DNA of 32,000 nt, taken from assembly GCF_000018465.1 (NCBI RefSeq), contig NC_010085.1:1050001-1082000 (forward strand). The letters are read 5' to 3'. Every line of letters begins with the position of its first letter. Positions within the stretch are counted from its first letter, which is position 1. The notes under the pieces were generated by a model. It had not been told where the DNA came from. It did not search any database and worked only from the letters and a program-made list of their open reading frames with translations. Below are positions 5,312 to 21,399 of this stretch, piece after piece. The stretch comes from Nitrosopumilus maritimus SCM1. GTDB taxonomy: Archaea; Thermoproteota; Nitrososphaeria; Nitrososphaerales; Nitrosopumilaceae. A program made the position numbers and the translations under genes.

Positions 5312-6625
5312 CTAAGGATTGTTCAGACTCTGTATGAATTGTTGATTGTTCATCATGTTATTCATCATTTGAGGATTCATCATCATGTTATTCATCATTT
5401 GCTGTCGTAGTTCTGGATCATCCATCATTTGGTTCATTATTGAACTCATCATGTTACCCATCATTCCTTGCATGTGCCAAGGATTGTTTAACATCATATC
5501 ATGCATGTTCTGCATTGCTTGTGGATTACTCATCATCTGATTCATCATGTTATTCATCATGTGGTGATTATTCATTGTCCAGTTACTGTTCATCACAGGA
5601 TTCATGTTCATCATGTTCATCATTTGATTATTGTTCATCATATCATACATCATTTGTGGGTGATTCATCATGTCAATCATCATCTGCTGTCTAAGTTCAG
5701 GATCATTCATTGCAGTTCCCATCATGCTTGTATTGTTCATAGTTGACATCATTCCGTGATTCATTCCCATCATGTTATTCATCATCATTCCTTTACCCAT
5801 CATAGAGCCACCCATCATGTTGTTGTTCATCATGTTATTTCCCATCATCATGTTTGAGCCCATCATGTTGCCCATCATCATTCCACCTTTCATCATGTTC
5901 ATCATCATTCCATTATTCATCATGTCTTGTATCATCTGAGGGTTGTTTGTCATCATATCCATCATTTGTTGTCTAGTAGTAGGATCATTCATCATTCCCA
6001 TCATACCATGATTCATTGAACCTCCCATCATCATGTTCATCATAGTACCATTTCCCCGAATTGTTTGCATCATTGGTTGGTGTTGCATCATCATATCCAT
6101 CATTTGTTGACGTAGTTCTGGATCATTCATCATAGTATTCATCATAGGACTCATCATCTGAGGGTTGTTTGTCATAGTTGACATCATTTGATTAGTCATT
6201 GTCTGCAAATGTTGAGGATCATTTGTCATGACATCATACCAAAGCTTTCCAGTTTGAGGATTGTTCATCATACTATTCATTACTCGTTGCATTTGTTGAG
6301 GATCGTTTGCCATCATGTTCATATCCCAATTACCCCAACCACGATCTGCCAATCTCAAATAGCTGTCAGGATTGACACAGACAGATGTTCCCATATTTCT
6401 CATCATGAGAACTTTGCCATCAACACATGTGATTTGGTCGGGACTTGTTCCCATCATCATTTGTTGTCTAGGGGTCATATGAGGAGTCATTTGAGCAAAA
6501 ACGGGTTCAGAGATTAATGAAAATGAAATTACTGTTAGAGTAAAAACCAAAATTCCCGCAAAGAGGTAGTTATTCAATGAATTTTTTATGTAATTATGGG
6601 ATTTAAGTGAAATTCCAATTTTCAT
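5312..6625 (-). CDS. Secreted or anchored, extremely Met/Asn-rich repeat protein (candidate Cu(I)-type metal-binding protein)
   Basis: 437 aa with an ATG start. An N-terminal hydrophobic segment (LFAGILVFTLTVISFSLISEPVFA) is followed by a domain with 124 Met by hand count. The unit NDPELRQQMM.DMM..NPQMM..MMNN recurs at least 4 times. Confidence 0.75.
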   Translation of the reverse strand: MKIGISLKSHNYIKNSLNNYLFAGILVFTLTVISFSLISEPVFAQMTPHMTPRQQMMMGTSPDQITCVDGKVLMMRNMGTSVCVNPDSYLRLADRGWGNWDMNMMANDPQQMQRVMNSMMNNPQTGKLWYDVMTNDPQHLQTMTNQMMSTMTNNPQMMSPMMNTMMNDPELRQQMMDMMMQHQPMMQTIRGNGTMMNMMMGGSMNHGMMGMMNDPTTRQQMMDMMTNNPQMIQDMMNNGMMMNMMKGGMMMGNMMGSNMMMGNNMMNNNMMGGSMMGKGMMMNNMMGMNHGMMSTMNNTSMMGTAMNDPELRQQMMIDMMNHPQMMYDMMNNNQMMNMMNMNPVMNSNWTMNNHHMMNNMMNQMMSNPQAMQNMHDMMLNNPWHMQGMMGNMMSSIMNQMMDDPELRQQMMNNMMMNPQMMNNMMNNQQFIQSLNNP

Positions 6626-6657
6626 AATTGATTCTATTAATTTAGAATGTTCTATTT

Positions 6658-6671
6658 ATATAATATTATAT
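6658..6671. promoter_or_regulatory. Perfect 14-bp palindrome ATATAATATTATAT in the divergent Met-rich / ArsR promoter region (candidate operator overlapping TATA boxes)
   Basis: Exact palindrome 33 nt from the Met-rich gene ATG (6625) and 15 nt from the preferred ArsR ATG (6686). It is AT-only, so it may simply be a bidirectional TATA element. Confidence 0.35.
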
Positions 6672-9088: not shown

Positions 9089-10267
9089 TTAACTATCCAA
9101 TAGAAACTCCTTTGTAAGTAAATTATTAGAAAGTTGTTTTTCTGCAGGCAAATATATCCACACGGGTATGTTCATTTGAGATAGATACTTGCAAAGTATG
9201 GGTCCAACATCTTCCCAACTTAGACGTCCTAAACCACAACCTAGTGCAGGAATTGCAAGTGATTCTATTCCTTTTTGTTCATAGTTATCTAAAAGCCATT
9301 TTAATCCCTGCTCTATACCCTCAATATCGCTATTATCTCGCCAGTGTTGTTTTGTAGCAAAAAGCAAAAACCATGTGTCTTTTTTATTTCCTAAAGAGCT
9401 AGGATCATCTGCAATTTGTTCATGATATGGGGCTTCACGTTGATACAATACAGGCTTGCCCATTCGAAGTGTTTTTCTTTTACACTGATCTTGATAGTGT
9501 ACATAAACATCTGGGAATTGATATTTTGCTCTAGAGGCCAACCCTTTTCCCATTACTCCAATACAATTTACACTTACAGTAAGGGTTTGCATTTTTGAGA
9601 AAAACAAATCTCCTTCTACCAATGAAAGATTTGAAGTGAGTGGAATTTGTCTTACAGGTTGGAAGAACATAGAAGGTTCAGGAATTATTGAAATGCTAGA
9701 AGACATAGAATTTCGTATTTCGTCTGCAAGAGTATGATTACTAACATAAATTGCACGAATGAATTCAGGTGGAATTCGTTCTGGAACTAGACATTCAGCC
9801 ATAATTTGTCTTTTAGTAGCATTACTATCTGTCCACCACTGTAAACTAGTAATTCTGTTAATTTGTCGTTCAATAGTTTTGAATTCAGTATTAGGATAGA
9901 AATGTGTAGGACCATTTGCAGCATTTCCGTCAGTGATAATTGTGTTAGGAGTAGTAAGGATTTTTTTATCAACAGCGACAACAGCTATGCAATCAGGAGA
10001 TTTTTCCATAGTTACACGGTACAGCATAGGATTTCGAGGTTGGAAATACAGATTAGCAAAATACCAAAGACTTTTCCCATTAGCGGTTTTTTCTCTTCTA
10101 CTGGAAACAATATCGCTGTCATAAATTGAAGTGTATTCGAGTTTTTGTTTTACAATTTGATCATGAGAGAGAATTCCATTTTGCAGCATGGACGGAATAT
10201 TGTCAATATGTGTAATGTAGAAAAGGTATTGGCTCAAGTCAGGAGTATAAATTTTGAATTCATCCAT
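9089..10267 (-). CDS. DarT-like (DUF4433) DNA ADP-ribosyltransferase fused to a C-terminal macrodomain
   Basis: N-terminal half: LFYITHIDNIPSMLQNGILSH, ANLYFQPRNPMLY and QIMAECLVPERIP, which are DarT hallmarks including the catalytic-Glu context. C-terminal half: VNCIGVMGKGLASRAKYQFP ... LAIPALGCGLGRLSWEDV, which is macrodomain-like. It is one uninterrupted 392-aa ORF. Confidence 0.75.
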   Translation of the reverse strand: MDEFKIYTPDLSQYLFYITHIDNIPSMLQNGILSHDQIVKQKLEYTSIYDSDIVSSRREKTANGKSLWYFANLYFQPRNPMLYRVTMEKSPDCIAVVAVDKKILTTPNTIITDGNAANGPTHFYPNTEFKTIERQINRITSLQWWTDSNATKRQIMAECLVPERIPPEFIRAIYVSNHTLADEIRNSMSSSISIIPEPSMFFQPVRQIPLTSNLSLVEGDLFFSKMQTLTVSVNCIGVMGKGLASRAKYQFPDVYVHYQDQCKRKTLRMGKPVLYQREAPYHEQIADDPSSLGNKKDTWFLLFATKQHWRDNSDIEGIEQGLKWLLDNYEQKGIESLAIPALGCGLGRLSWEDVGPILCKYLSQMNIPVWIYLPAEKQLSNNLLTKEFLLDS

Positions 10268-10285: not shown

Positions 10286-10302
10286 ATGTATTTTAAATAC
10301 AT
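10286..10302. promoter_or_regulatory. 8+1+8 palindrome ATGTATTT-T-AAATACAT overlapping the TATA-like region of the DarT-macro gene
   Basis: Perfect inverted repeat 19-35 nt upstream of the ATG at 10267. It contains a TTTAAA core. Confidence 0.35.
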
Positions 10303-10418
10303 GATTGAGAGGATGGTATGGAATAGGTTAATTTGCCTAAAAATGGGATCTTTTCAGTGAATAATACTACCCACTAGGAACACAGATACATAGATAGAGT
10401 TGAAATTTCTAAAATTTT

Positions 10419-11375
10419 CTAGAATAATGTTTGGTTTCTTCCTGAAAGAACATCCATCATTCTTTTTACAGATTTTTTATCTTCTTTTTCAATTCTAGAT
10501 TTCAATGTGGTTAATGAACCAACATATTTTGAATCGCCCTTAGTTTTTCTAGAGTATGCCAAAATATAGTATTCAATATTTCCAGGAATTCCACGTATAG
10601 GAATAGTTTCTCCTAATTTTTTTCCTAAAATTTCTGAAAGTTTTTCTTGATACTTATCCTCAATTGTTTGTCCTTGTGATATCTCATACAATAAAGCCTC
10701 AGCATTTTCTTCACCCCAATATTCATTCCAAGTAGATTCTGTAGATGTATCGCCCTTATCCAATTTGCCTTTAACTCGTAAAAGACCCTGAGAACCCACA
10801 TTGATCATAAAATCTTGAGCAGGAAATGAGTCGCTAAGAAATTTTAGGGTCTTCATTTTTATTTCCATACCCTCAGGATCAACAAAAGTAAAAACAATAG
10901 GATTACTAAATTTAGATTTTATATTATTAACAACATTTGAAATAACAGCATTACAATCACCTTGAATCACATTAAATTTTTCTTTAGGAAGAATTTTGTC
11001 TAAACGTTGTTCTAAAACTTGGGATTTCTTCTTATCTTTTTCAACACATACAGCATAGTCAAAATTCATGTCCGGATGCGATAACGCACAAAGAGGAGAA
11101 CCTGCTATAATATCACCAGTTTCTCTTAATTTAACTAAACCTGAACCGGAAAAAAGATCAATGTAAACAGCACCATCATAATATTTTTTTGCTTTATCAT
11201 TTCGTCTTACAACATTCAGAAAAGTAGTTTTGTAATAATTTACAGAAATTAATTTTAATGCGGTATATTCTGCATATTCATTTTTAATTTCAGAATCAGG
11301 CACTTTCTGCGCAATTTTAGTTAGAATTTCTAATTTATTTCGAATCCAATCTTCTTGTTTCATTTTAGGAGGCAA
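10419..11375 (-). CDS. Three-Cys-motif partner protein TcmP-like (methyltransferase-fold)
   Basis: AVYIDLFSGSGLV (Gly-rich, SAM motif I-like), GSPLCAL, YAVCVEKD and its position next to a Gp37/Gp68 gene fit my recollection of the TcmP family. The track start is TTG 11375 and an ATG at 11363 is an alternative. Confidence 0.6.
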   Translation of the reverse strand: MPPKMKQEDWIRNKLEILTKIAQKVPDSEIKNEYAEYTALKLISVNYYKTTFLNVVRRNDKAKKYYDGAVYIDLFSGSGLVKLRETGDIIAGSPLCALSHPDMNFDYAVCVEKDKKKSQVLEQRLDKILPKEKFNVIQGDCNAVISNVVNNIKSKFSNPIVFTFVDPEGMEIKMKTLKFLSDSFPAQDFMINVGSQGLLRVKGKLDKGDTSTESTWNEYWGEENAEALLYEISQGQTIEDKYQEKLSEILGKKLGETIPIRGIPGNIEYYILAYSRKTKGDSKYVGSLTTLKSRIEKEDKKSVKRMMDVLSGRNQTLF

Positions 11376-11436: not shown

Positions 11437-12276
11437 ATGTCATTGGCAATTGGGTCGGGGATTGAGTGGACAGAGGCAACGTGGAACCCCACAAGTGGCT
11501 GTTCAAAAATTTCTCCAGGTTGTAAAAATTGCTATGCAGAGACACTTACTAAAAGATTGAAAGCTATGGGGCAACAAAAATATAAAAAAGGATTTCAATA
11601 TGTGGAACACCCTTCAGATGTCAATCTACCACTAACATGGAAAAAGCCCAAAAAGATTTTTGTTAATAGCATGTCAGATCTTTTCCACGAAAACTCAACA
11701 TTTGAGTTTACAGGCAAATGTTTTGCAACAATGATTCAGGCTGATCGTCATGATTATCAAATTTTAACAAAACGTCCAAAAAGAATGGCAGAATTCTCAA
11801 AAATATTTTTTGAATATTTTGGTCATAAAATTCCTAATTTCATGTGGATGGGAACAAGTATTGAAAATAAACAATATGTTTCAAGAATCAAAGATCTTCG
11901 AAAAGTCAAATGCCATACAAGATTCATTAGTTTTGAACCTCTTATTGGTTCAGTTGGAAAAGTGAACCTAAAAGGTATTGATTGGGCAATAATTGGAGGA
12001 GAAAGTGGTCATCATTTTAGAAAAGTAAAGAAAGAATGGATTGAAGAGATAATTGATCAATGTAAAGAACAAGAAGTTCCAGTATTTTTCAAACAATGGG
12101 GAGGATTCAGACCAAAATCTGGAGGAAGAACAATTAACAGAAGAAAGTATAGTGAATATCCAGAAATTGAGAAAAGAAATTCTTTGAAAAATGTTAATTT
12201 TGATGAAATTGCCTTTGCAGAAATGTGTATGAAACACGAAGCAATGAAAAGGGAACAAATGCTTGTAAAAAATTAA
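11437..12276 (+). CDS. Phage Gp37/Gp68 (DUF5131) family protein with an N-terminal three-Cys motif
   Basis: The opening IEWTEATWNPTSGCSKISPGCKNCYAE is the family signature. The later WAIIGGESG segment is also typical. ATG start. Confidence 0.8.
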   Translation: MSLAIGSGIEWTEATWNPTSGCSKISPGCKNCYAETLTKRLKAMGQQKYKKGFQYVEHPSDVNLPLTWKKPKKIFVNSMSDLFHENSTFEFTGKCFATMIQADRHDYQILTKRPKRMAEFSKIFFEYFGHKIPNFMWMGTSIENKQYVSRIKDLRKVKCHTRFISFEPLIGSVGKVNLKGIDWAIIGGESGHHFRKVKKEWIEEIIDQCKEQEVPVFFKQWGGFRPKSGGRTINRRKYSEYPEIEKRNSLKNVNFDEIAFAEMCMKHEAMKREQMLVKN

Positions 12277-13933: not shown

Positions 13934-14167
13934 TTGAGTGAGAAAAATTTTACTTCTTGTCTTATGATCTATTTTAAAAATACAGTACACATGCTAAGAG
14001 AGTTACACATTCGTCTTTTTGTGCACTGCAAAAAATGCGGGCAGAAAATTAATCCTGACAAAGGATATTGGACGTGGGAAAACAAGTCTCCGATTATTGG
14101 AGGATATTATCATGTTGAGTGCGGAATGATAAACAATCCTCCGCCAAAAGAAAGCATTCCGTTTTAG
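13934..14167 (+). CDS. Small CxxC...HxxC zinc-binding hypothetical protein
   Basis: HCKKCGQKINPDKGYWTWENKSPIIGGYYHVECG. The start is uncertain (non-ATG in the track, and MLRELH is an internal ATG option). Confidence 0.35.
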   Translation: MSEKNFTSCLMIYFKNTVHMLRELHIRLFVHCKKCGQKINPDKGYWTWENKSPIIGGYYHVECGMINNPPPKESIPF

Positions 14168-14547
14168 GGCTCTATCTCTTGTAAGAACGGACCGCTAATG
14201 TCGTAATCATATTCTCCAAATGGCGTATTTTCATTGCATAATTTGTCCGAGCCACCATAGAAATTGTAAAGTGTAAATTCTGCATTGTCTCTGTCCGTTT
14301 CGTTTTTAATCTCAGTGTAGTAGACTTTGATGTCATCACGGTTACTCATTACTTTTTTTACACAAGAGTTTGACTCGTCATTGCTTTCATGGACTTTCAT
14401 TCTTTCGTAAATATTTACCTGGCCTACGTATTTTGCCTTTTTGATGCCATCAATTGTTTTTGCAATAATGTACACTCCGGAATATTTTGGATATGTAAAT
14501 TTTCCTCCGACAGAATATGTTATGGGACCGTTCCATGTTAACTTCAT
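14164..14547 (-). CDS. Degenerate GIY-YIG-like domain protein
   Basis: SGVYIIAK...KYVGQVNIYERMKVHE...DNAEFTLYNFY follows GIY-YIG spacing (GxY..., YxG, R, H/E, later E/N). Its start overlaps the upstream stop (ATGA). Confidence 0.5.
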   Translation of the reverse strand: MKLTWNGPITYSVGGKFTYPKYSGVYIIAKTIDGIKKAKYVGQVNIYERMKVHESNDESNSCVKKVMSNRDDIKVYYTEIKNETDRDNAEFTLYNFYGGSDKLCNENTPFGEYDYDISGPFLQEIEP

Positions 14548-14778: not shown

Positions 14779-15132
14779 TCACCCTAGAAATCTCTCCCAA
14801 AAACCCTTGCAGCTGTTAGGCTTTGTTCTGTTGCGAGAAGGACATGTTCTTCTAATGGAGTTGCGTTCAAGGTTATAGGCCTGTGTTCTTGTGGAGGTTT
14901 TTTGGTAGCTGACAGATGTACCAGTATTGCCTGTGCGCTGATGCTCTTTTACACGCCTATGCAGGTCATTAGTGCTTCCAATATAACGCGTCTTTCCGTA
15001 TTGGTTAATCTTGTAGACTCCAGGGCTTTTTGGAATTTTCGATATTCCCGATGTGGTAAATGGAACCCTTGAGGTTTGCTTTGCCTTTATTGCCCTGACT
15101 TGGCCACATCTATTTCGTCCACGTACTGCCAT
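14779..15132 (-). CDS. GIY-YIG nuclease-domain protein with a basic N-terminal tail
   Basis: PGVYKINQYGKTRYIGSTNDLHRRVKEH ... AYNLERNSI gives the GIY, YIG, Arg, His/Glu and Asn motifs in canonical order. ATG start. Confidence 0.65.
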   Translation of the reverse strand: MAVRGRNRCGQVRAIKAKQTSRVPFTTSGISKIPKSPGVYKINQYGKTRYIGSTNDLHRRVKEHQRTGNTGTSVSYQKTSTRTQAYNLERNSIRRTCPSRNRTKPNSCKGFWERFLG

Positions 15133-16520: not shown

Positions 16521-16723
16521 ATTTATTTTTTTACACAGTTATTTTCAGGCGTGCCAACCATGCTTTTAGCATAACAGCTTTGTGATCGGACATAAGACAG
16601 ATCAGAAATTCTGCTTGATTTTTTTAATTTTTTTATTTGCGGTAATTTTTCAGGCACAGCAACCATCCTTTAAGGATGACAGCTTTATGATCGGGTAAAA
16701 CAGAGATCAGAATTTTAGTCTTG
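16521..16723. repeat. Two tandem copies of a ~105-bp element with conserved hairpins
   Basis: The landmark ttcaggc occurs at 16544 and 16649, giving a period of 105. Both copies share ..caaccat.ctttta.g.at.acagcttt.tgatcgg....a.aca.agatcagaa.tt... Each has a 5-bp hairpin (ATGC/GCAT in copy A, ATCC/GGAT in copy B) and a TGATC...GATCA hairpin. Confidence 0.65.
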
Positions 16724-17632
16724 GACGGAATCTCCCCAATAAGTCCATGTTCCGTCATCTGCAGAGTCTTTGCCCCTTGCAAACATTTCAAACTTCTTTT
16801 TTGCAGGATAGTATTTTTCAATCATACGATAAAACATGCGAGGCTTTTCAGAGTGTCTTGTTCTTTCTGCCATTCCAACAGAGGACACACGTACAGACTC
16901 TGGTGGAACTCCTGGGTTTCCTTTGGTGCCAACAAGCAGAAGCTCATGTGATCCCTTAAAGTAATACCCAGTACCGTTTTGCAGTTTGTTGTTTTTTTGT
17001 TTTACCCACACCATGTTTGTTTTGTAAGTAAAACCCCAATGTTTCATAAGAGACAATGCCTCGTCAAGTTTGGGATTCGTAGTCCACATAAACAAAATGC
17101 AGTCCTTGTATGAGGGAACATTAGGAATCTCCAATTTCATTTCTTCAAGTGTCATTGTTTTGTAATCAGGTGCTCCTTCTAATGGCAAGTCATATTTCCA
17201 GGGAGGATCTGCAACAATTACCTCGTACTGGTTTTTTGGCAGATTGGGAGTTGGAGTTGTGGCCTTTTTTGCAGTGTTGATCATTTTGTGAGCATAGTCT
17301 ATGCTCATACCGGACTCTATTCTTTGAGGGATATTGCCAAATTCCTTTGGATTTTCCCTCACCTGCTGCTCTATTGCCATGATTTTGTCAATTTGGCCTC
17401 CAGACACGCCTACATAATGCGCAATTTCGTCACGAACCTTGAATTTTGGCTCACCTGGTGATAATTTGACACCAGCTTGGCGGCGTTTTTTGGCCTCTTC
17501 ATCTAGCTTGGGTTTTAGCTTGGAAATTATCTCACACATTTCAGAAAACGTGAAGTTTTTTCGAATTGTGTTTTCTGTAATTTCTATTTGCTGACCCAAA
17601 GGCAAGTCCTGCAAAAGTGTCTCATCAATCAT
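16715..17632 (-). CDS. MT-A70-family N6-adenine DNA methyltransferase with an N-terminal ParB-like HTH segment
   Basis: VIVADPPWKY (DPPW catalytic motif), and later FMWTTNPKL and HSEKP. The N-terminal ~110 aa resemble the HTH/middle part of ParB-type proteins. Confidence 0.8.
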   Translation of the reverse strand: MIDETLLQDLPLGQQIEITENTIRKNFTFSEMCEIISKLKPKLDEEAKKRRQAGVKLSPGEPKFKVRDEIAHYVGVSGGQIDKIMAIEQQVRENPKEFGNIPQRIESGMSIDYAHKMINTAKKATTPTPNLPKNQYEVIVADPPWKYDLPLEGAPDYKTMTLEEMKLEIPNVPSYKDCILFMWTTNPKLDEALSLMKHWGFTYKTNMVWVKQKNNKLQNGTGYYFKGSHELLLVGTKGNPGVPPESVRVSSVGMAERTRHSEKPRMFYRMIEKYYPAKKKFEMFARGKDSADDGTWTYWGDSVQD

Positions 17633-18657: not shown

Positions 18658-19332
18658 ATGGTTAATCGAATTACTAAAAGATCCGAGCATGGCAATACAC
18701 TCCAGATAATTCAAAAATTTCTAGCAAAAGTAGAAGAGGCAACAGTCAGTCAAATCGAAAAAGAGTTAGCAAGTAAGGAAATAAAATACAAAAGCAAGCG
18801 TTCTGTAATTGCAAGACTAAACAGACTCGTTGAACAGAATTTTTTAGAAAAGATAGAGTACAAAGATGTTCCAAGGTACTGTCTTCCAAATGGACGAATG
18901 ACTCCATCACATATTGGATTGATGATAAAAACAGAGACAAACAATTTCCTAGGCAAAACAATGTCAAGGATTGGGGCAAAAAAATTCCTTAAATTTTATT
19001 CAAAATTTGCAGGAGTGTATGAGATGTATGTAGAAGCGCTCAGCTGGAAGTTGTTCAAGGATGAAAAGAATTTTAGAAAAAGAACAAGAAGTAGAGAGGA
19101 ATTTTTACAAGAGGCACTTCAATTAAGAATTCCGTTTCCAAAGAGCATAGCAGAGTTGGCTCAAATCCATGACATGAAAAAAATTGAGATCATTTACAAG
19201 AACTGTGAAAAGATCGTTTTAGAAACAGAGTCAAAATTAGATGAAGAATGTTTGGAGATATGCAAGGGAATGTTCAGGATTACAGAAGAAAAAATTTCAC
19301 ATATTGCAAAAACAAAAGATCCTATTCTGTAA
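18658..19332 (+). CDS. wHTH transcriptional regulator of the element (divergent from the operon)
   Basis: The N-terminal LQIIQKFLAKVEEATVSQIEKELASKEIKYKSKRSVIARLNRLVEQNFLEKI is wHTH-like. The rest has no recognised family. Confidence 0.5.
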   Translation: MVNRITKRSEHGNTLQIIQKFLAKVEEATVSQIEKELASKEIKYKSKRSVIARLNRLVEQNFLEKIEYKDVPRYCLPNGRMTPSHIGLMIKTETNNFLGKTMSRIGAKKFLKFYSKFAGVYEMYVEALSWKLFKDEKNFRKRTRSREEFLQEALQLRIPFPKSIAELAQIHDMKKIEIIYKNCEKIVLETESKLDEECLEICKGMFRITEEKISHIAKTKDPIL

Positions 19333-20524
19333 CAGTCCAGCCTTTTTGCGTTAATTCTTTTTTTACCCGCTCAACAGCATCATCCACCAATGTTGGAATT
19401 TGTTCCTCAAGATTCTTTTTCGCTTCTTTGAGTTTCTGATTTTCAAATTTTACGCGTTCAGTGTCTGAAATTGTAAGAAATGGGATTGCCTTTTCATATT
19501 CGGAGAATCTCTCAAAATCCTCTTCAGCGTATCGCTCATAGTGCTTTTCCAAGCCTGTCTTGTGTCCCATCATGTCTTCCTTGTCTAGGAAGTCTACCTT
19601 GGCTCGCCTGAGATTTGTGTTAAAGGATTTTCTAAAGCCATGGTCCAGTTTTACCTCGTGTCTTCGCCTTCCTGGAGGTAGAGGAGGTCTAAGACCAATT
19701 GCGCGAACTACATTCTCAACTCTCCTTCGAACGCCCTTGTGATTTAGTCTGTGTATTGTAGGATACTTTACTGCCTTGAGCAGCGGATCATCAGGATTTG
19801 GATATACACCAATGTCAGCCTTCCATTTTTCTCGATACATGTCAAGGTAATTGCATGCCTCTGGCGTGATAAATGTCCAATATTGTTCTGGGTCATTTCT
19901 GTAAACACACAGTGCTGCACCTCTAAAGCTGTCATCAGGATTTCTAAAAAATACCACGTCCTTCCATGTAAAATAATCCCATGACTCTAGTCGGAATCCT
20001 GCTGATGCAAACATTGTAACTATTACCTTGTCGGTAATGTCGTTTGACACCTCAAGCATTCTCTGCATCTCTTCTGTGGTGTATGCTCTATCGTTTGAGC
20101 CTCGGGTAATCCTCGGATACAGTTTTGACAAAGACTTCCAGTGAACTGCAATTCGATTAGAGTCAAGTAGTACCTTAATTGGCTTGATATGATTTGGAAG
20201 TGTCTGCGGACTAATCTCTCCTGCTTCCACTCTCTTCTTGTCTTCCTTGATGTATGCGGCAATAATGTCTGATGCTAGATCAGAACTCTTTCTTGCAGCA
20301 TCAACAAAGAATTTTGCAAGTGTTGTAGCTTCATTGTTTGGAGGTTTTTCTCCTAGTGCATCTTGGTAGATTTCGTTTGGGATTAATTTTAGAAACGTGT
20401 ACAGCAGATTCTTGTATCTCCTTTTTGTCTCCTTGTGTTTTATCGAGTCCAAAAAAAGTTGGTAGGGATCACTTCTTGTGTTTATCTTCTCTAGGGTAAT
20501 TTCCATCAGATGATGCCATGACAT
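19322..20524 (-). CDS. Tyrosine recombinase / phage-type integrase
   Basis: C-terminal catalytic region with LDHGFRKSF (HxxR) and MMGHKTGLEKHYERY (His ... Tyr nucleophile), and an upstream GFRLES Arg box. 400 aa. Confidence 0.85.
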   Translation of the reverse strand: MSWHHLMEITLEKINTRSDPYQLFLDSIKHKETKRRYKNLLYTFLKLIPNEIYQDALGEKPPNNEATTLAKFFVDAARKSSDLASDIIAAYIKEDKKRVEAGEISPQTLPNHIKPIKVLLDSNRIAVHWKSLSKLYPRITRGSNDRAYTTEEMQRMLEVSNDITDKVIVTMFASAGFRLESWDYFTWKDVVFFRNPDDSFRGAALCVYRNDPEQYWTFITPEACNYLDMYREKWKADIGVYPNPDDPLLKAVKYPTIHRLNHKGVRRRVENVVRAIGLRPPLPPGRRRHEVKLDHGFRKSFNTNLRRAKVDFLDKEDMMGHKTGLEKHYERYAEEDFERFSEYEKAIPFLTISDTERVKFENQKLKEAKKNLEEQIPTLVDDAVERVKKELTQKGWTVTE

Positions 20525-20691: not shown

Positions 20692-21237
20692 ATGCCAACA
20701 ATTCTGTTGATTTTAGGCTCACAAACAGGAGCATTTGCAGCTGGAAACTATAACAAAGGACTTTTTGAAGCAGCAAAAGAATTACTTTCAAAAAAATATG
20801 ATGTAATTGAAACCAAAATTGAAGAAGGGTACGAAATTGCAGATGAAATTGAAAAATGGAAAAAATCTGATTTTATTATTTACCAATATCCAATCTATTG
20901 GTTCATGATGCCTCCAATTCTCAAAAAATATTTGGATGATGTTTATGCTTATGGTGAATTTTTTGCATTTAATGATGGACCTTATGGTTCTGGTGGATTG
21001 ATGAAAGGAAAAAAAGTAATGTTGTCTACAACTTGGAATTCTCCTGCAGATGCACTTGGAGGAGAATTCTTTGATGGTGCTAGTCGAGATGATGTATTGT
21101 TGCCTATGCGTCTAAGCCAAACTTATTGTGGAATGGAAGAATTATCGCATTTTTCATGTCATGATGTAATCAAAAATCCTCACTTTGATGATGATAAACA
21201 ACGATTCATCAAACATTTAGAACAAGTATTTTCTTAA
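20692..21237 (+). CDS. Flavodoxin-like-fold NAD(P)H:quinone oxidoreductase (MdaB-like)
   Basis: ILLILGS...SDFIIYQYPIYWFMMPPILKKYLDDV...YGSGGLMKGKKVMLSTTWNSP parallels the MdaB motif YGSGGL..GKK.MLS.TWN.P. Confidence 0.7.
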   Translation: MPTILLILGSQTGAFAAGNYNKGLFEAAKELLSKKYDVIETKIEEGYEIADEIEKWKKSDFIIYQYPIYWFMMPPILKKYLDDVYAYGEFFAFNDGPYGSGGLMKGKKVMLSTTWNSPADALGGEFFDGASRDDVLLPMRLSQTYCGMEELSHFSCHDVIKNPHFDDDKQRFIKHLEQVFS

Positions 21238-21385
21238 TTGGTTCAAGTCATACCAGAATCTGAACTTTAAATAAAATCTCAAAAATGTCCCACCGTGGGT
21301 TACAATCGTAAATAGTCCATACCTATGATGAGGGTTTTTTATAAAAAAATAATCTCCAAAATACCCCAGGAATCTCCGTAATCTA

Positions 21386-21399
21386 ATCCGGTCCACTAC
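21386..21399 (+). repeat. 14-bp direct repeat ATCCGGTCCACTAC, copy 2
   Basis: Exact match to 20562..20575, 824 bp downstream and 58 nt upstream of the DCC-family gene. Confidence 0.5.

Follow-up and report, generated by a model that had tools for sequence, protein, structure and literature searches.

A single-chain DarT-macrodomain gene in Nitrosopumilus maritimus SCM1 belongs to a widespread fused DarTG family

Our study concerns a window of Nitrosopumilus maritimus SCM1 DNA, by which we mean the whole analysed stretch of 32,000 nucleotides (NC_010085.1, positions 1,050,001 to 1,082,000), and within it a gene that joins a DarT-type ADP-ribosyltransferase and a DarG-type macrodomain in one polypeptide (a single-chain DarTG). 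In the DarTG family, DarT ADP-ribosylates thymidine in single-stranded DNA (ssDNA) and blocks replication, and the DarG macrodomain removes the adduct. The gene is one open reading frame (ORF) of 392 amino acids (aa) with an ATG start and a TAA stop, preceded by a TATA-type promoter (Table 1). Its product is 100% identical to the N. maritimus SCM1 protein ABX13054.1 / WP_012215541.1 / UniProt A9A5P9, and NCBI already lists WP_012215541.1 as a "DarT ssDNA thymidine ADP-ribosyltransferase family protein". A first-pass annotation, made from the letters alone, had described the gene as a DarT toxin fused to a macrodomain antidote in an archaeon. The exact database identity confirms the host, every peptide motif quoted in that annotation is found in the 392-aa ORF, and the Pfam, PADLOC and NCBIfam profiles return the order it had given, with DarT at the N terminus and a DarG-type macrodomain at the C terminus.

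Profile searches of each half, the check that the first-pass annotation had proposed, matched both families. The DUF4433/DarT assignment of the N-terminal half is upheld by a full-length match to Pfam DarT, PF14487 (aa 16-202, profile positions 1-201 of 201, E 9.2e-50, 169.6 bits against a cut-off of 22.5), and the PADLOC DarT model matches the protein at E 3.6e-37. The C-terminal half is matched by PADLOC DarG (aa 215-380, E 4.9e-47) over profile positions 3-151 of 329 only, by NCBIfam antitoxin_DarG (aa 216-382, E 4e-44) over positions 3-156 of 338 and at 151 bits against a cut-off of 250, and by Pfam Macro at E 2.5e-9. Since the DarG profiles are matched over only the first ~150 of their ~330 positions, and since the protein ends 10 residues past the macrodomain, the DarG C-terminal domain is absent; neither the PADLOC nor the NCBIfam profiles met this DarT-binding (ssDNA-mimic) domain in the window protein. 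No DNA-binding domain was detected in it with the Pfam, PADLOC and NCBIfam profiles.

The closest parallel is a protein of known structure. Residues 14-392 of the window protein align in one stretch with residues 25-406 of the 406-residue chain of PDB entry 7OMU, "Thermosipho africanus DarTG in complex with ADP-ribose", released 2021-06-23 (E 3.5e-137, 52.6% identity over 382 aa). The structure was reportedly described by Schuller et al. in 2021, in Nature 596:597. An AlphaFold2 model of the window protein (mean predicted local distance difference test score, pLDDT, 84.6; predicted template modelling score, pTM, 0.83) superposes on 7OMU over both domains in Foldseek (TM 0.89/0.93, root-mean-square deviation 2.2 Å, 382 columns), and the relative arrangement of the two domains is the same in the model and in 7OMU, this being a comparison of a prediction with a crystal structure and not of two experiments. 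The window gene is thus almost certainly the N. maritimus ortholog of the T. africanus fused DarTG, a single-chain, macrodomain-associated (DarTG2-class) system. The T. africanus protein, like that of the window, is a single chain of the same length class, with the same catalytic motifs in both halves; the two differ in that the window host is a mesophilic marine ammonia-oxidising archaeon and not a thermophilic bacterium, in the archaeal TATA-type promoter of the window gene, and in their genomic neighbourhoods. The aligned part of 7OMU (382 residues, chain 25-406) agrees at 381 of 382 positions with the fused ORF of a Thermosipho metagenome-assembled genome (MAG; locus L061), and the sole difference from this natural ORF is the replacement of the catalytic Glu by Ala in KRKIMA[E/A]CLVP, from which we infer that the crystallographers treated the fused Thermosipho enzyme as an active toxin.

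The active site of the DarT half is well conserved. In an alignment of 28 diverse fused proteins, drawn from archaea and from a wide range of bacterial phyla (columns 63% identical on average), H20, R57 and E158 are invariant, as is the N72-Q76-R78-N79 segment, and position 74 is Tyr or Phe. The catalytic Glu that the first-pass annotation had placed in this half is therefore intact: E158 aligns with the position in 7OMV, a Thermus DarT chain, at which Ala (in AAFLV) takes the place of the catalytic Glu, the Glu of the H-Y-E motif being E160 in T. aquaticus DarT. Y74 aligns with the position of Y71 in DarT2, and the invariant R57 lies in the loop that corresponds to that of DarT2 R51, the NAD-loop Arg that abstracts the thymine proton, and may be its equivalent, to within +/-2 residues given the 3-residue gap in the hidden Markov model alignment. 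DarT2 is distinguished from the guanine-specific DarT1 by the Tyr of H-Y-E, which is Ser in DarT1, and by the catalytic Asp that DarT1 carries at loop Arg+2 (PMC11543638). In the 28 fused proteins the R57+2 position is variable, with no conserved Asp, and the window protein has both DarT2 features. The whole length of the DarT-half profile can be aligned to Thermus sp. 2.9 DarT2 (E 5.5e-14) and to M. tuberculosis DarT (E 2.3e-8), whereas its alignment with E. coli C7 DarT1 (8BAQ) is patchy and partial, and the structural scores are TMt 0.76-0.77 for DarT2 vs 0.63 for DarT1. The DarT profile is nearer to DarT2 than to DarT1, and the DarT2-like H-Y-E motif, together with the macrodomain partner, makes thymidine the most likely target base.

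The macrodomain half retains the residues known to matter in a characterised antitoxin. In a residue-by-residue alignment to 5M31 and 5M3I, N234, K241, K306 and G345 correspond to N22, K29, K80 and G119 of T. aquaticus DarG (TaqDarG), and all four are invariant or nearly invariant among the 28 fused proteins. Mutagenesis has shown that each of these residues matters in TaqDarG, where K80 is catalytic and K80A inactivates the enzyme (PMC5179494). The conservation in the two halves suggests that both catalytic sites are under selection across the fused family. Between the halves, P198, F201, F202 and P204 of the linker are invariant or nearly so, and the model gives the linker regular secondary structure at a pLDDT above 90. 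Since it is both conserved and predicted to be ordered, DarT and the macrodomain are probably rigidly coupled through the linker and not arranged as beads on a string.

The first-pass annotation had set the fusion against characterised DarTG systems, which it took to consist of separate proteins. That premise was wrong, 7OMU having the same fused architecture, and the fusion is neither unprecedented nor singular, with a solved structure and hundreds of members: relatives of this ~390-aa fusion are encoded in at least 524 genomes, counting one genome per GTDB species. The bacterial carriers include Chloroflexota, Planctomycetota, Acidobacteriota, Ignavibacteria, cyanobacteria, Aquificaceae and Thermosipho, and the archaeal ones include Nitrososphaerota and Halobacteria MAGs. 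The best 120 matches among 5.8 billion proteins are all full-length relatives (385-433 aa, 55-85% identity), most of them with both Pfam domains, and a library clustered at 50% identity yielded 122 representatives at E <= 1e-30, including ~30 full-length fused clusters. At least three groups can be told apart among the archaeal copies: a Nitrosopumilus clade that is 64-85% identical to the window protein, a Nitrososphaerota sequence that stands apart and has its best matches in bacteria (~56%), and two Halobacteria sequences whose nearest relatives are from Chloroflexota (66%). Three archaeal groups, some with bacterial nearest relatives, argue for repeated horizontal acquisition of the fused gene by archaea. 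In an uncultured Nitrosopumilus MAG we observed two 99.5%-identical fused copies, on contigs of 41 kb and 1.86 Mb (L002:6001-7164 and L003:6001-7164), which could reflect a recent duplication, a mobile element or assembly redundancy. A canonical split darT-darG pair on a plasmid has the T-then-G order, which is also the domain order of the fusion; this is consistent with a fused protein that arose when two such genes joined and the C-terminal domain of DarG was lost.

A conserved partner or antitoxin gene was not found when all ORFs of at least 70 aa within ~6 kb were clustered across 81 loci, the largest neighbour family being present at 7 of the 81 and in varying positions. A hidden partner or antitoxin gene of that size is unsupported by this clustering and by Pfam and PADLOC scans of 60 close same-strand neighbours, in which only scattered helicases turned up (ResIII in 6 of 60). 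The first-pass statement that neither the DarG C-terminal domain nor a second gene is present therefore holds, given the partial coverage of the DarG profiles and the neighbour clustering.

The explanation that we favour, with a probability of about 0.65 for the whole, is that the gene is a member of a fused DarTG2-class family that works by a write-erase mechanism and serves as a mobile toxin-antidote or antiviral gene. The DarT domain would use NAD+ to ADP-ribosylate an ssDNA base, most likely thymidine, and so block replication, and the linked macrodomain would hydrolyse the same adduct, with the enforced 1:1 ratio and the proximity of the two sites keeping host DNA essentially unmodified. 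The fusion would thus represent the enzymatic half of the dual antidote mechanism of DarG, without its sequestration half. Of these parts, we regard the write-erase mechanism as likely and the chances of an antiviral or toxin-antidote role as evenly balanced. The first-pass annotation had stated that the known DarTG mechanism explains neither how a cis-fused toxin is held off nor how it is released. The former is no longer a difficulty, since the TaqDarG macrodomain alone suffices as an antitoxin (Jankevicius et al., 2016; PMC5179494). The latter stands, but it applies to canonical DarTG as well, for which a 2024 paper likewise leaves the release or trigger step unexplained (PMC11481870), and the gap is therefore not peculiar to the fusion. 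Because the covalently fused antidote is not selectively degradable, activation would require either that the balance between writing and erasing shift, for example under a burst of replicating viral ssDNA, or that some factor disable or displace the macrodomain, in the manner of the trigger-opened fused toxin-antitoxins for which there is precedent (cited in PMC11481870). The most likely role would be that of a mobile, self-contained toxin-antidote or antiviral gene, horizontally acquired by Nitrosopumilus.

Comparison with known systems helps to place the fusion. Canonical two-gene DarTG2 systems (Thermus aquaticus, M. tuberculosis, enteropathogenic E. coli) consist of DarT and of a DarG made up of a macrodomain and a C-terminal DarT-binding domain. 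The window protein shares with them the DarT fold, the H-Y-E motif and the catalytic Glu, a DarG/TARG1 macrodomain that retains the catalytic Lys as well as equivalents of N22, K29 and G119, and the T-then-G order of the split operon; it differs in being one polypeptide, in lacking the DarG C-terminal sequestration domain, and in that fusion fixes a 1:1 ratio and excludes control by a labile antitoxin. DarTG1 (DarT1 plus NADAR, guanine-specific) has a homologous DarT fold and also carries out reversible ADP-ribosylation of ssDNA bases, but the antidote of the window protein is a macrodomain and not NADAR, which sets it outside DarTG1. Nor is it a classical type II toxin-antitoxin with a separate labile antitoxin and an autoregulated operator, its antidote being fused through a structured linker, the protein showing no DNA-binding domain in the profile searches and the palindrome upstream of the gene lacking conservation. 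In CapRel(SJ46), as here, toxin and antidote lie in one chain and activation by antitoxin degradation is impossible (precedent cited in PMC11481870); the enzymes are unrelated, however, and the CapRel antitoxin domain is a non-enzymatic lid, whereas the antidote of the window protein is a conserved enzyme that would undo what the toxin makes. The macrodomain half also resembles the orphan DarG-like macrodomains of phages (chimallivirus AdfM and the 'Appr-1-p processing' proteins of the phiEco32 group), which belong to the same hydrolase family (39-43% identity, aa 202-373) but are without DarT and act as stand-alone erasers in anti-DarTG counter-defence (PMC13309987). We found 265 phage records that match the window protein; among the best 15 of these, 14 match the macrodomain half only, without DarT (records H17-H30, for example Escherichia phage phiEco32 34836-35252 and Klebsiella phage vB_KvM-Eowyn 4254-4706). 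Such macrodomain-only matches agree with the published proposal that phages use orphan DarG-like proteins against host defence.

The other explanations that we considered are all less directly supported than this one. That the gene is an artefact, with two genes run together by a sequencing error, or else a decayed and inactive relic, is a reading for which we found nothing in favour, and it is already effectively refuted by the alignment, the related loci and the 7OMU match. The fused protein is encoded by one ORF, mostly of 386-428 aa, in 81 of 81 independent related loci, and a crystal structure of the single chain exists, which together rule out two genes joined by a frameshift or sequencing error, the outcome that the first-pass annotation had named as fatal to its own reading; a relic is difficult to reconcile with catalytic residues that are invariant, and columns that are 63% identical on average, across phyla. 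A more substantial alternative is a putative steric auto-inhibition, in which the attached macrodomain would block the ssDNA groove of DarT, a viral protein binding the macrodomain or linker would open the enzyme, and hydrolysis would be secondary. The conserved, confidently structured linker and an inter-domain arrangement (pTM 0.83) that matches 7OMU would suit such a lid, differential proteolysis cannot remove a fused antidote, and fused toxin-antitoxins opened by a trigger, such as CapRel, provide a precedent (cited in PMC11481870). Against this, the four tested catalytic or ligand residues of the macrodomain are all conserved, so that hydrolysis, and not occlusion alone, appears to be under selection, and the Glu-to-Ala change in the crystallised Thermosipho protein suggests, if only by inference, that the wild-type fusion is not fully silent. 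We consider steric control of this kind rather unlikely.

A housekeeping or regulatory writer-eraser, which would both add ADP-ribose to host ssDNA and take it off again, at replication origins for instance, and so tune replication or growth with no part in defence or addiction, would agree with the many fused genes that lie beside ordinary genes, including ParB, and with neighbours that carry no family-wide defence signal. The family is, however, patchily distributed, and its neighbourhoods are unrelated even in closely related Nitrosopumilus genomes, which is typical of accessory mobile genes and not of core regulators; the two 99.5%-identical copies on different contigs of one MAG also speak against a core function, and we judge this explanation improbable. 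An ssDNA-activated NAD+ sink, in which abundant ssDNA would drive a futile cycle (NAD+ -> ADP-ribose + nicotinamide) and NAD+ depletion would abort infection, draws on the conservation of both activities in a fixed 1:1 geometry, since writing plus erasing would amount to net NAD+ hydrolysis, and seems to us very unlikely.

Several points weigh against the write-erase antiviral explanation itself. A 1:1 writer-eraser might produce no net modification, which would fit a regulatory or NAD-consuming role equally well. As to the target base, the DarT half is ~17-20% identical to characterised DarTs in structural alignments, and it scores 97.3 bits against a cut-off of 150 with the NCBIfam equivalog model toxin_DarT (NF048013); it seems to represent a divergent subfamily and no equivalog of the characterised two-gene DarT. 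The close same-strand neighbours (n=60) are heterogeneous (helicases, ParB, a tRNA synthetase, an IPP transferase and metabolic enzymes), and this heterogeneity, with no conserved partner gene, makes the single gene the unit of inheritance. A family-wide defence signal was not seen among these 60 neighbours, 2-3 of which match any one PADLOC model, mostly of helicase type, so that the defence-island argument rests mainly on two Nitrosopumilus genomes. The searchable literature yielded no measured activity, toxicity or antiviral phenotype for a fused DarTG, the window protein included.

The fused architecture is already crystallised, widespread and annotated, and the window gene is an ordinary archaeal member of the family; what keeps it of interest is the activation of single-chain DarTG proteins and a possible antiviral role in archaea. 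We found no test, in the searchable literature, of how a single-chain DarTG is switched on. The fused family is a natural experiment on the control of a toxin by an attached eraser alone, with neither sequestration nor a labile antitoxin. It is conceivable, if doubtful, that the rigid writer-eraser fusion forms a mechanistically distinct branch of DarTG, and is more than a DarTG short of one domain, with an output that depends on the load of substrate or on a trigger from a virus, and two versions of such a branch are possible, one in which viral ssDNA would drive an NAD+ futile cycle and one in which a viral factor binding the macrodomain would unmask DarT. If this were true, the copy in N. 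maritimus would provide the first demonstration of a DarTG-type antiviral system at work in an archaeon. This species is a model ammonia-oxidising archaeon that can be grown in culture, and its DarTG copy, with a conserved and portable promoter, would offer a practical way into the question of whether archaea use DNA ADP-ribosylation as an antiviral defence.

Table 1. Features of the fused DarTG gene, its promoter and its surroundings, in window positions; a dot or a bare dash stands where no strand is given.
Feature	Position	Strand	Basis or remark
Fused DarT-macrodomain gene (single-chain DarTG)	9089..10267	(-)	ORF list and sequence, database identity, end-to-end 7OMU homology
DarT (ARTD-type DNA ADP-ribosyltransferase) domain, aa 16-202; H20, Y74, E158, loop R57	9662..10222	(-)	PF14487 and 28-sequence alignment
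GAA codon of catalytic Glu158 (MAECLVP)	9794..9796	(-)	Invariant in 28-sequence alignment; Ala in 7OMU and 7OMV chains
Structured conserved inter-domain linker, aa 195-213 (IPEPxMFFQP...LT)	9629..9685	(-)	Conservation in 28-sequence alignment and model
DarG/TARG1-type macrodomain (predicted ADP-ribosyl-DNA glycohydrolase), aa 214-382	9122..9628	(-)	PADLOC/NCBIfam DarG, 5M31 and 5M3I alignment
AAA codon of Lys306, equivalent of DarG catalytic Lys80 (TKxHW)	9350..9352	(-)	TaqDarG alignment; invariant in 28-sequence alignment
Perfect 8+1+8 palindrome ATGTATTT-T-AAATACAT over TATA box	10286..10302	.	Exact match; probably incidental, N. maritimus-specific
Conserved 21-nt promoter block TCAATCATgTaTTTAAAATAC / TCAATCATnTnTTTAAAATAC / TCAATCATGTATTTAAAATAC	10288..10308	(-)	Five Nitrosopumilus-clade upstream regions aligned
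TATA-like box TTTAAAATA within promoter block	10289..10297	(-)	Centre ~26 nt upstream of ATG
TcmP 'three-Cys-motif partner' gene	10419-11375	(-)	TIGR04474 E 1.6e-28; PADLOC PDC-M41A E 4e-20
DUF5131/Gp37-Gp68 gene	11437-12276	(+)	Pfam E 6e-88; PADLOC PDC-M41B E 2e-100
Two small adjacent ORFs, weak GIY-YIG nuclease-like matches	14164-14547 and 14779-15132	(-)	Pfam E 9e-3 and 7e-5; NCBIfam UvrC N-terminal-like
MT-A70-family DNA/RNA methyltransferase gene	16715-17632	(-)	Pfam E 6e-26; PADLOC MTase_II E 2e-43; ~6.4 kb from DarTG
tRNA-Trp, 91 nt, probably intron-containing	6579-6669	-	Brackets the DarTG region together with the recombinase
Distant XerA-like tyrosine recombinase	19322-20524	(-)	NCBIfam E 1e-8, far below cut-off
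Imperfect 22-nt direct repeat GTAxTCxxATCCGGTCCACTAC, 86% identity	20554-20575 and 21378-21399	-	Flanks flavodoxin-like gene

The promoter region that the first-pass annotation had assigned to the gene is borne out by a TATA-containing block that is conserved together with it. The 21-nt block, which occurs once in the window (as TCAATCATnTnTTTAAAATAC), is found at the same offset upstream of every fetched Nitrosopumilus-clade ortholog (L001:4689-4709, L002/L003:5957-5977 and L081:7960-7980), where the upstream genes differ, and nowhere else in 85 loci. The fused gene thus appears to carry its own portable archaeal promoter. The position of the TATA-like box, centred so close to the ATG, suggests that the transcript is leaderless or near-leaderless. 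The block is better conserved than the coding sequence, and its conservation reaches beyond the TATA box, which could be due to a bound regulator. The same annotation had drawn attention to a perfect palindrome over the TATA-like box; its exactness is confirmed, but it is not a conserved operator. Perfect 8+(0-4)+8 palindromes are no more frequent in this 34%-GC window than expected by chance (9 observed vs 6.1 +/- 2.9 under a first-order Markov model), and in the alignment of five Nitrosopumilus-clade upstream regions the left arm differs in every ortholog. The palindrome is ruled out as an operator on these two grounds, and the same palindrome statistics and ortholog alignment gave no evidence of an operator in the DarTG promoter region.

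The immediate surroundings of the gene differ from one carrier to another. Directly upstream of it in the window, TcmP and DUF5131 are divergently transcribed and correspond to PDC-M41A/B, a candidate phage-defence pair in PADLOC. Around the N. zosterae ortholog (85% identity) are Mrr-like, SNF2-helicase, MT-A70 and PIN genes, a neighbourhood otherwise unlike that of the window; an MT-A70 gene is thus found near both (L081:2486-3166 in N. zosterae). We infer from this gene content that the contexts in N. maritimus and N. zosterae look defence-like and may point to a defence role; a family-wide association with defence islands is unsupported by the immediate neighbours and suggestive in these two genomes only. 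At ~6 of the 60 loci (e.g. L010, L017, L023, L041 and L045), a ResIII/DEAD-type helicase stands directly beside the fused gene on the same strand, and some of the neighbouring ResIII helicases have MrfA Zn-binding or DUF790 domains. These ResIII-flanked fused genes recall 'DarHTG', the variants with an associated helicase that have been validated in E. coli (PMC13069673).

Further along the window, the tRNA-Trp gene and the XerA-like recombinase bracket the DarTG gene, the TcmP pair, the GIY-YIG-like ORFs and the MT-A70 gene. The region between them could be an integrated island; neither an att-like direct repeat nor a shift in GC content was found for it. Next to the recombinase-like gene lies a flavodoxin-like gene (20692-21237), situated between the two copies of the imperfect 22-nt repeat.

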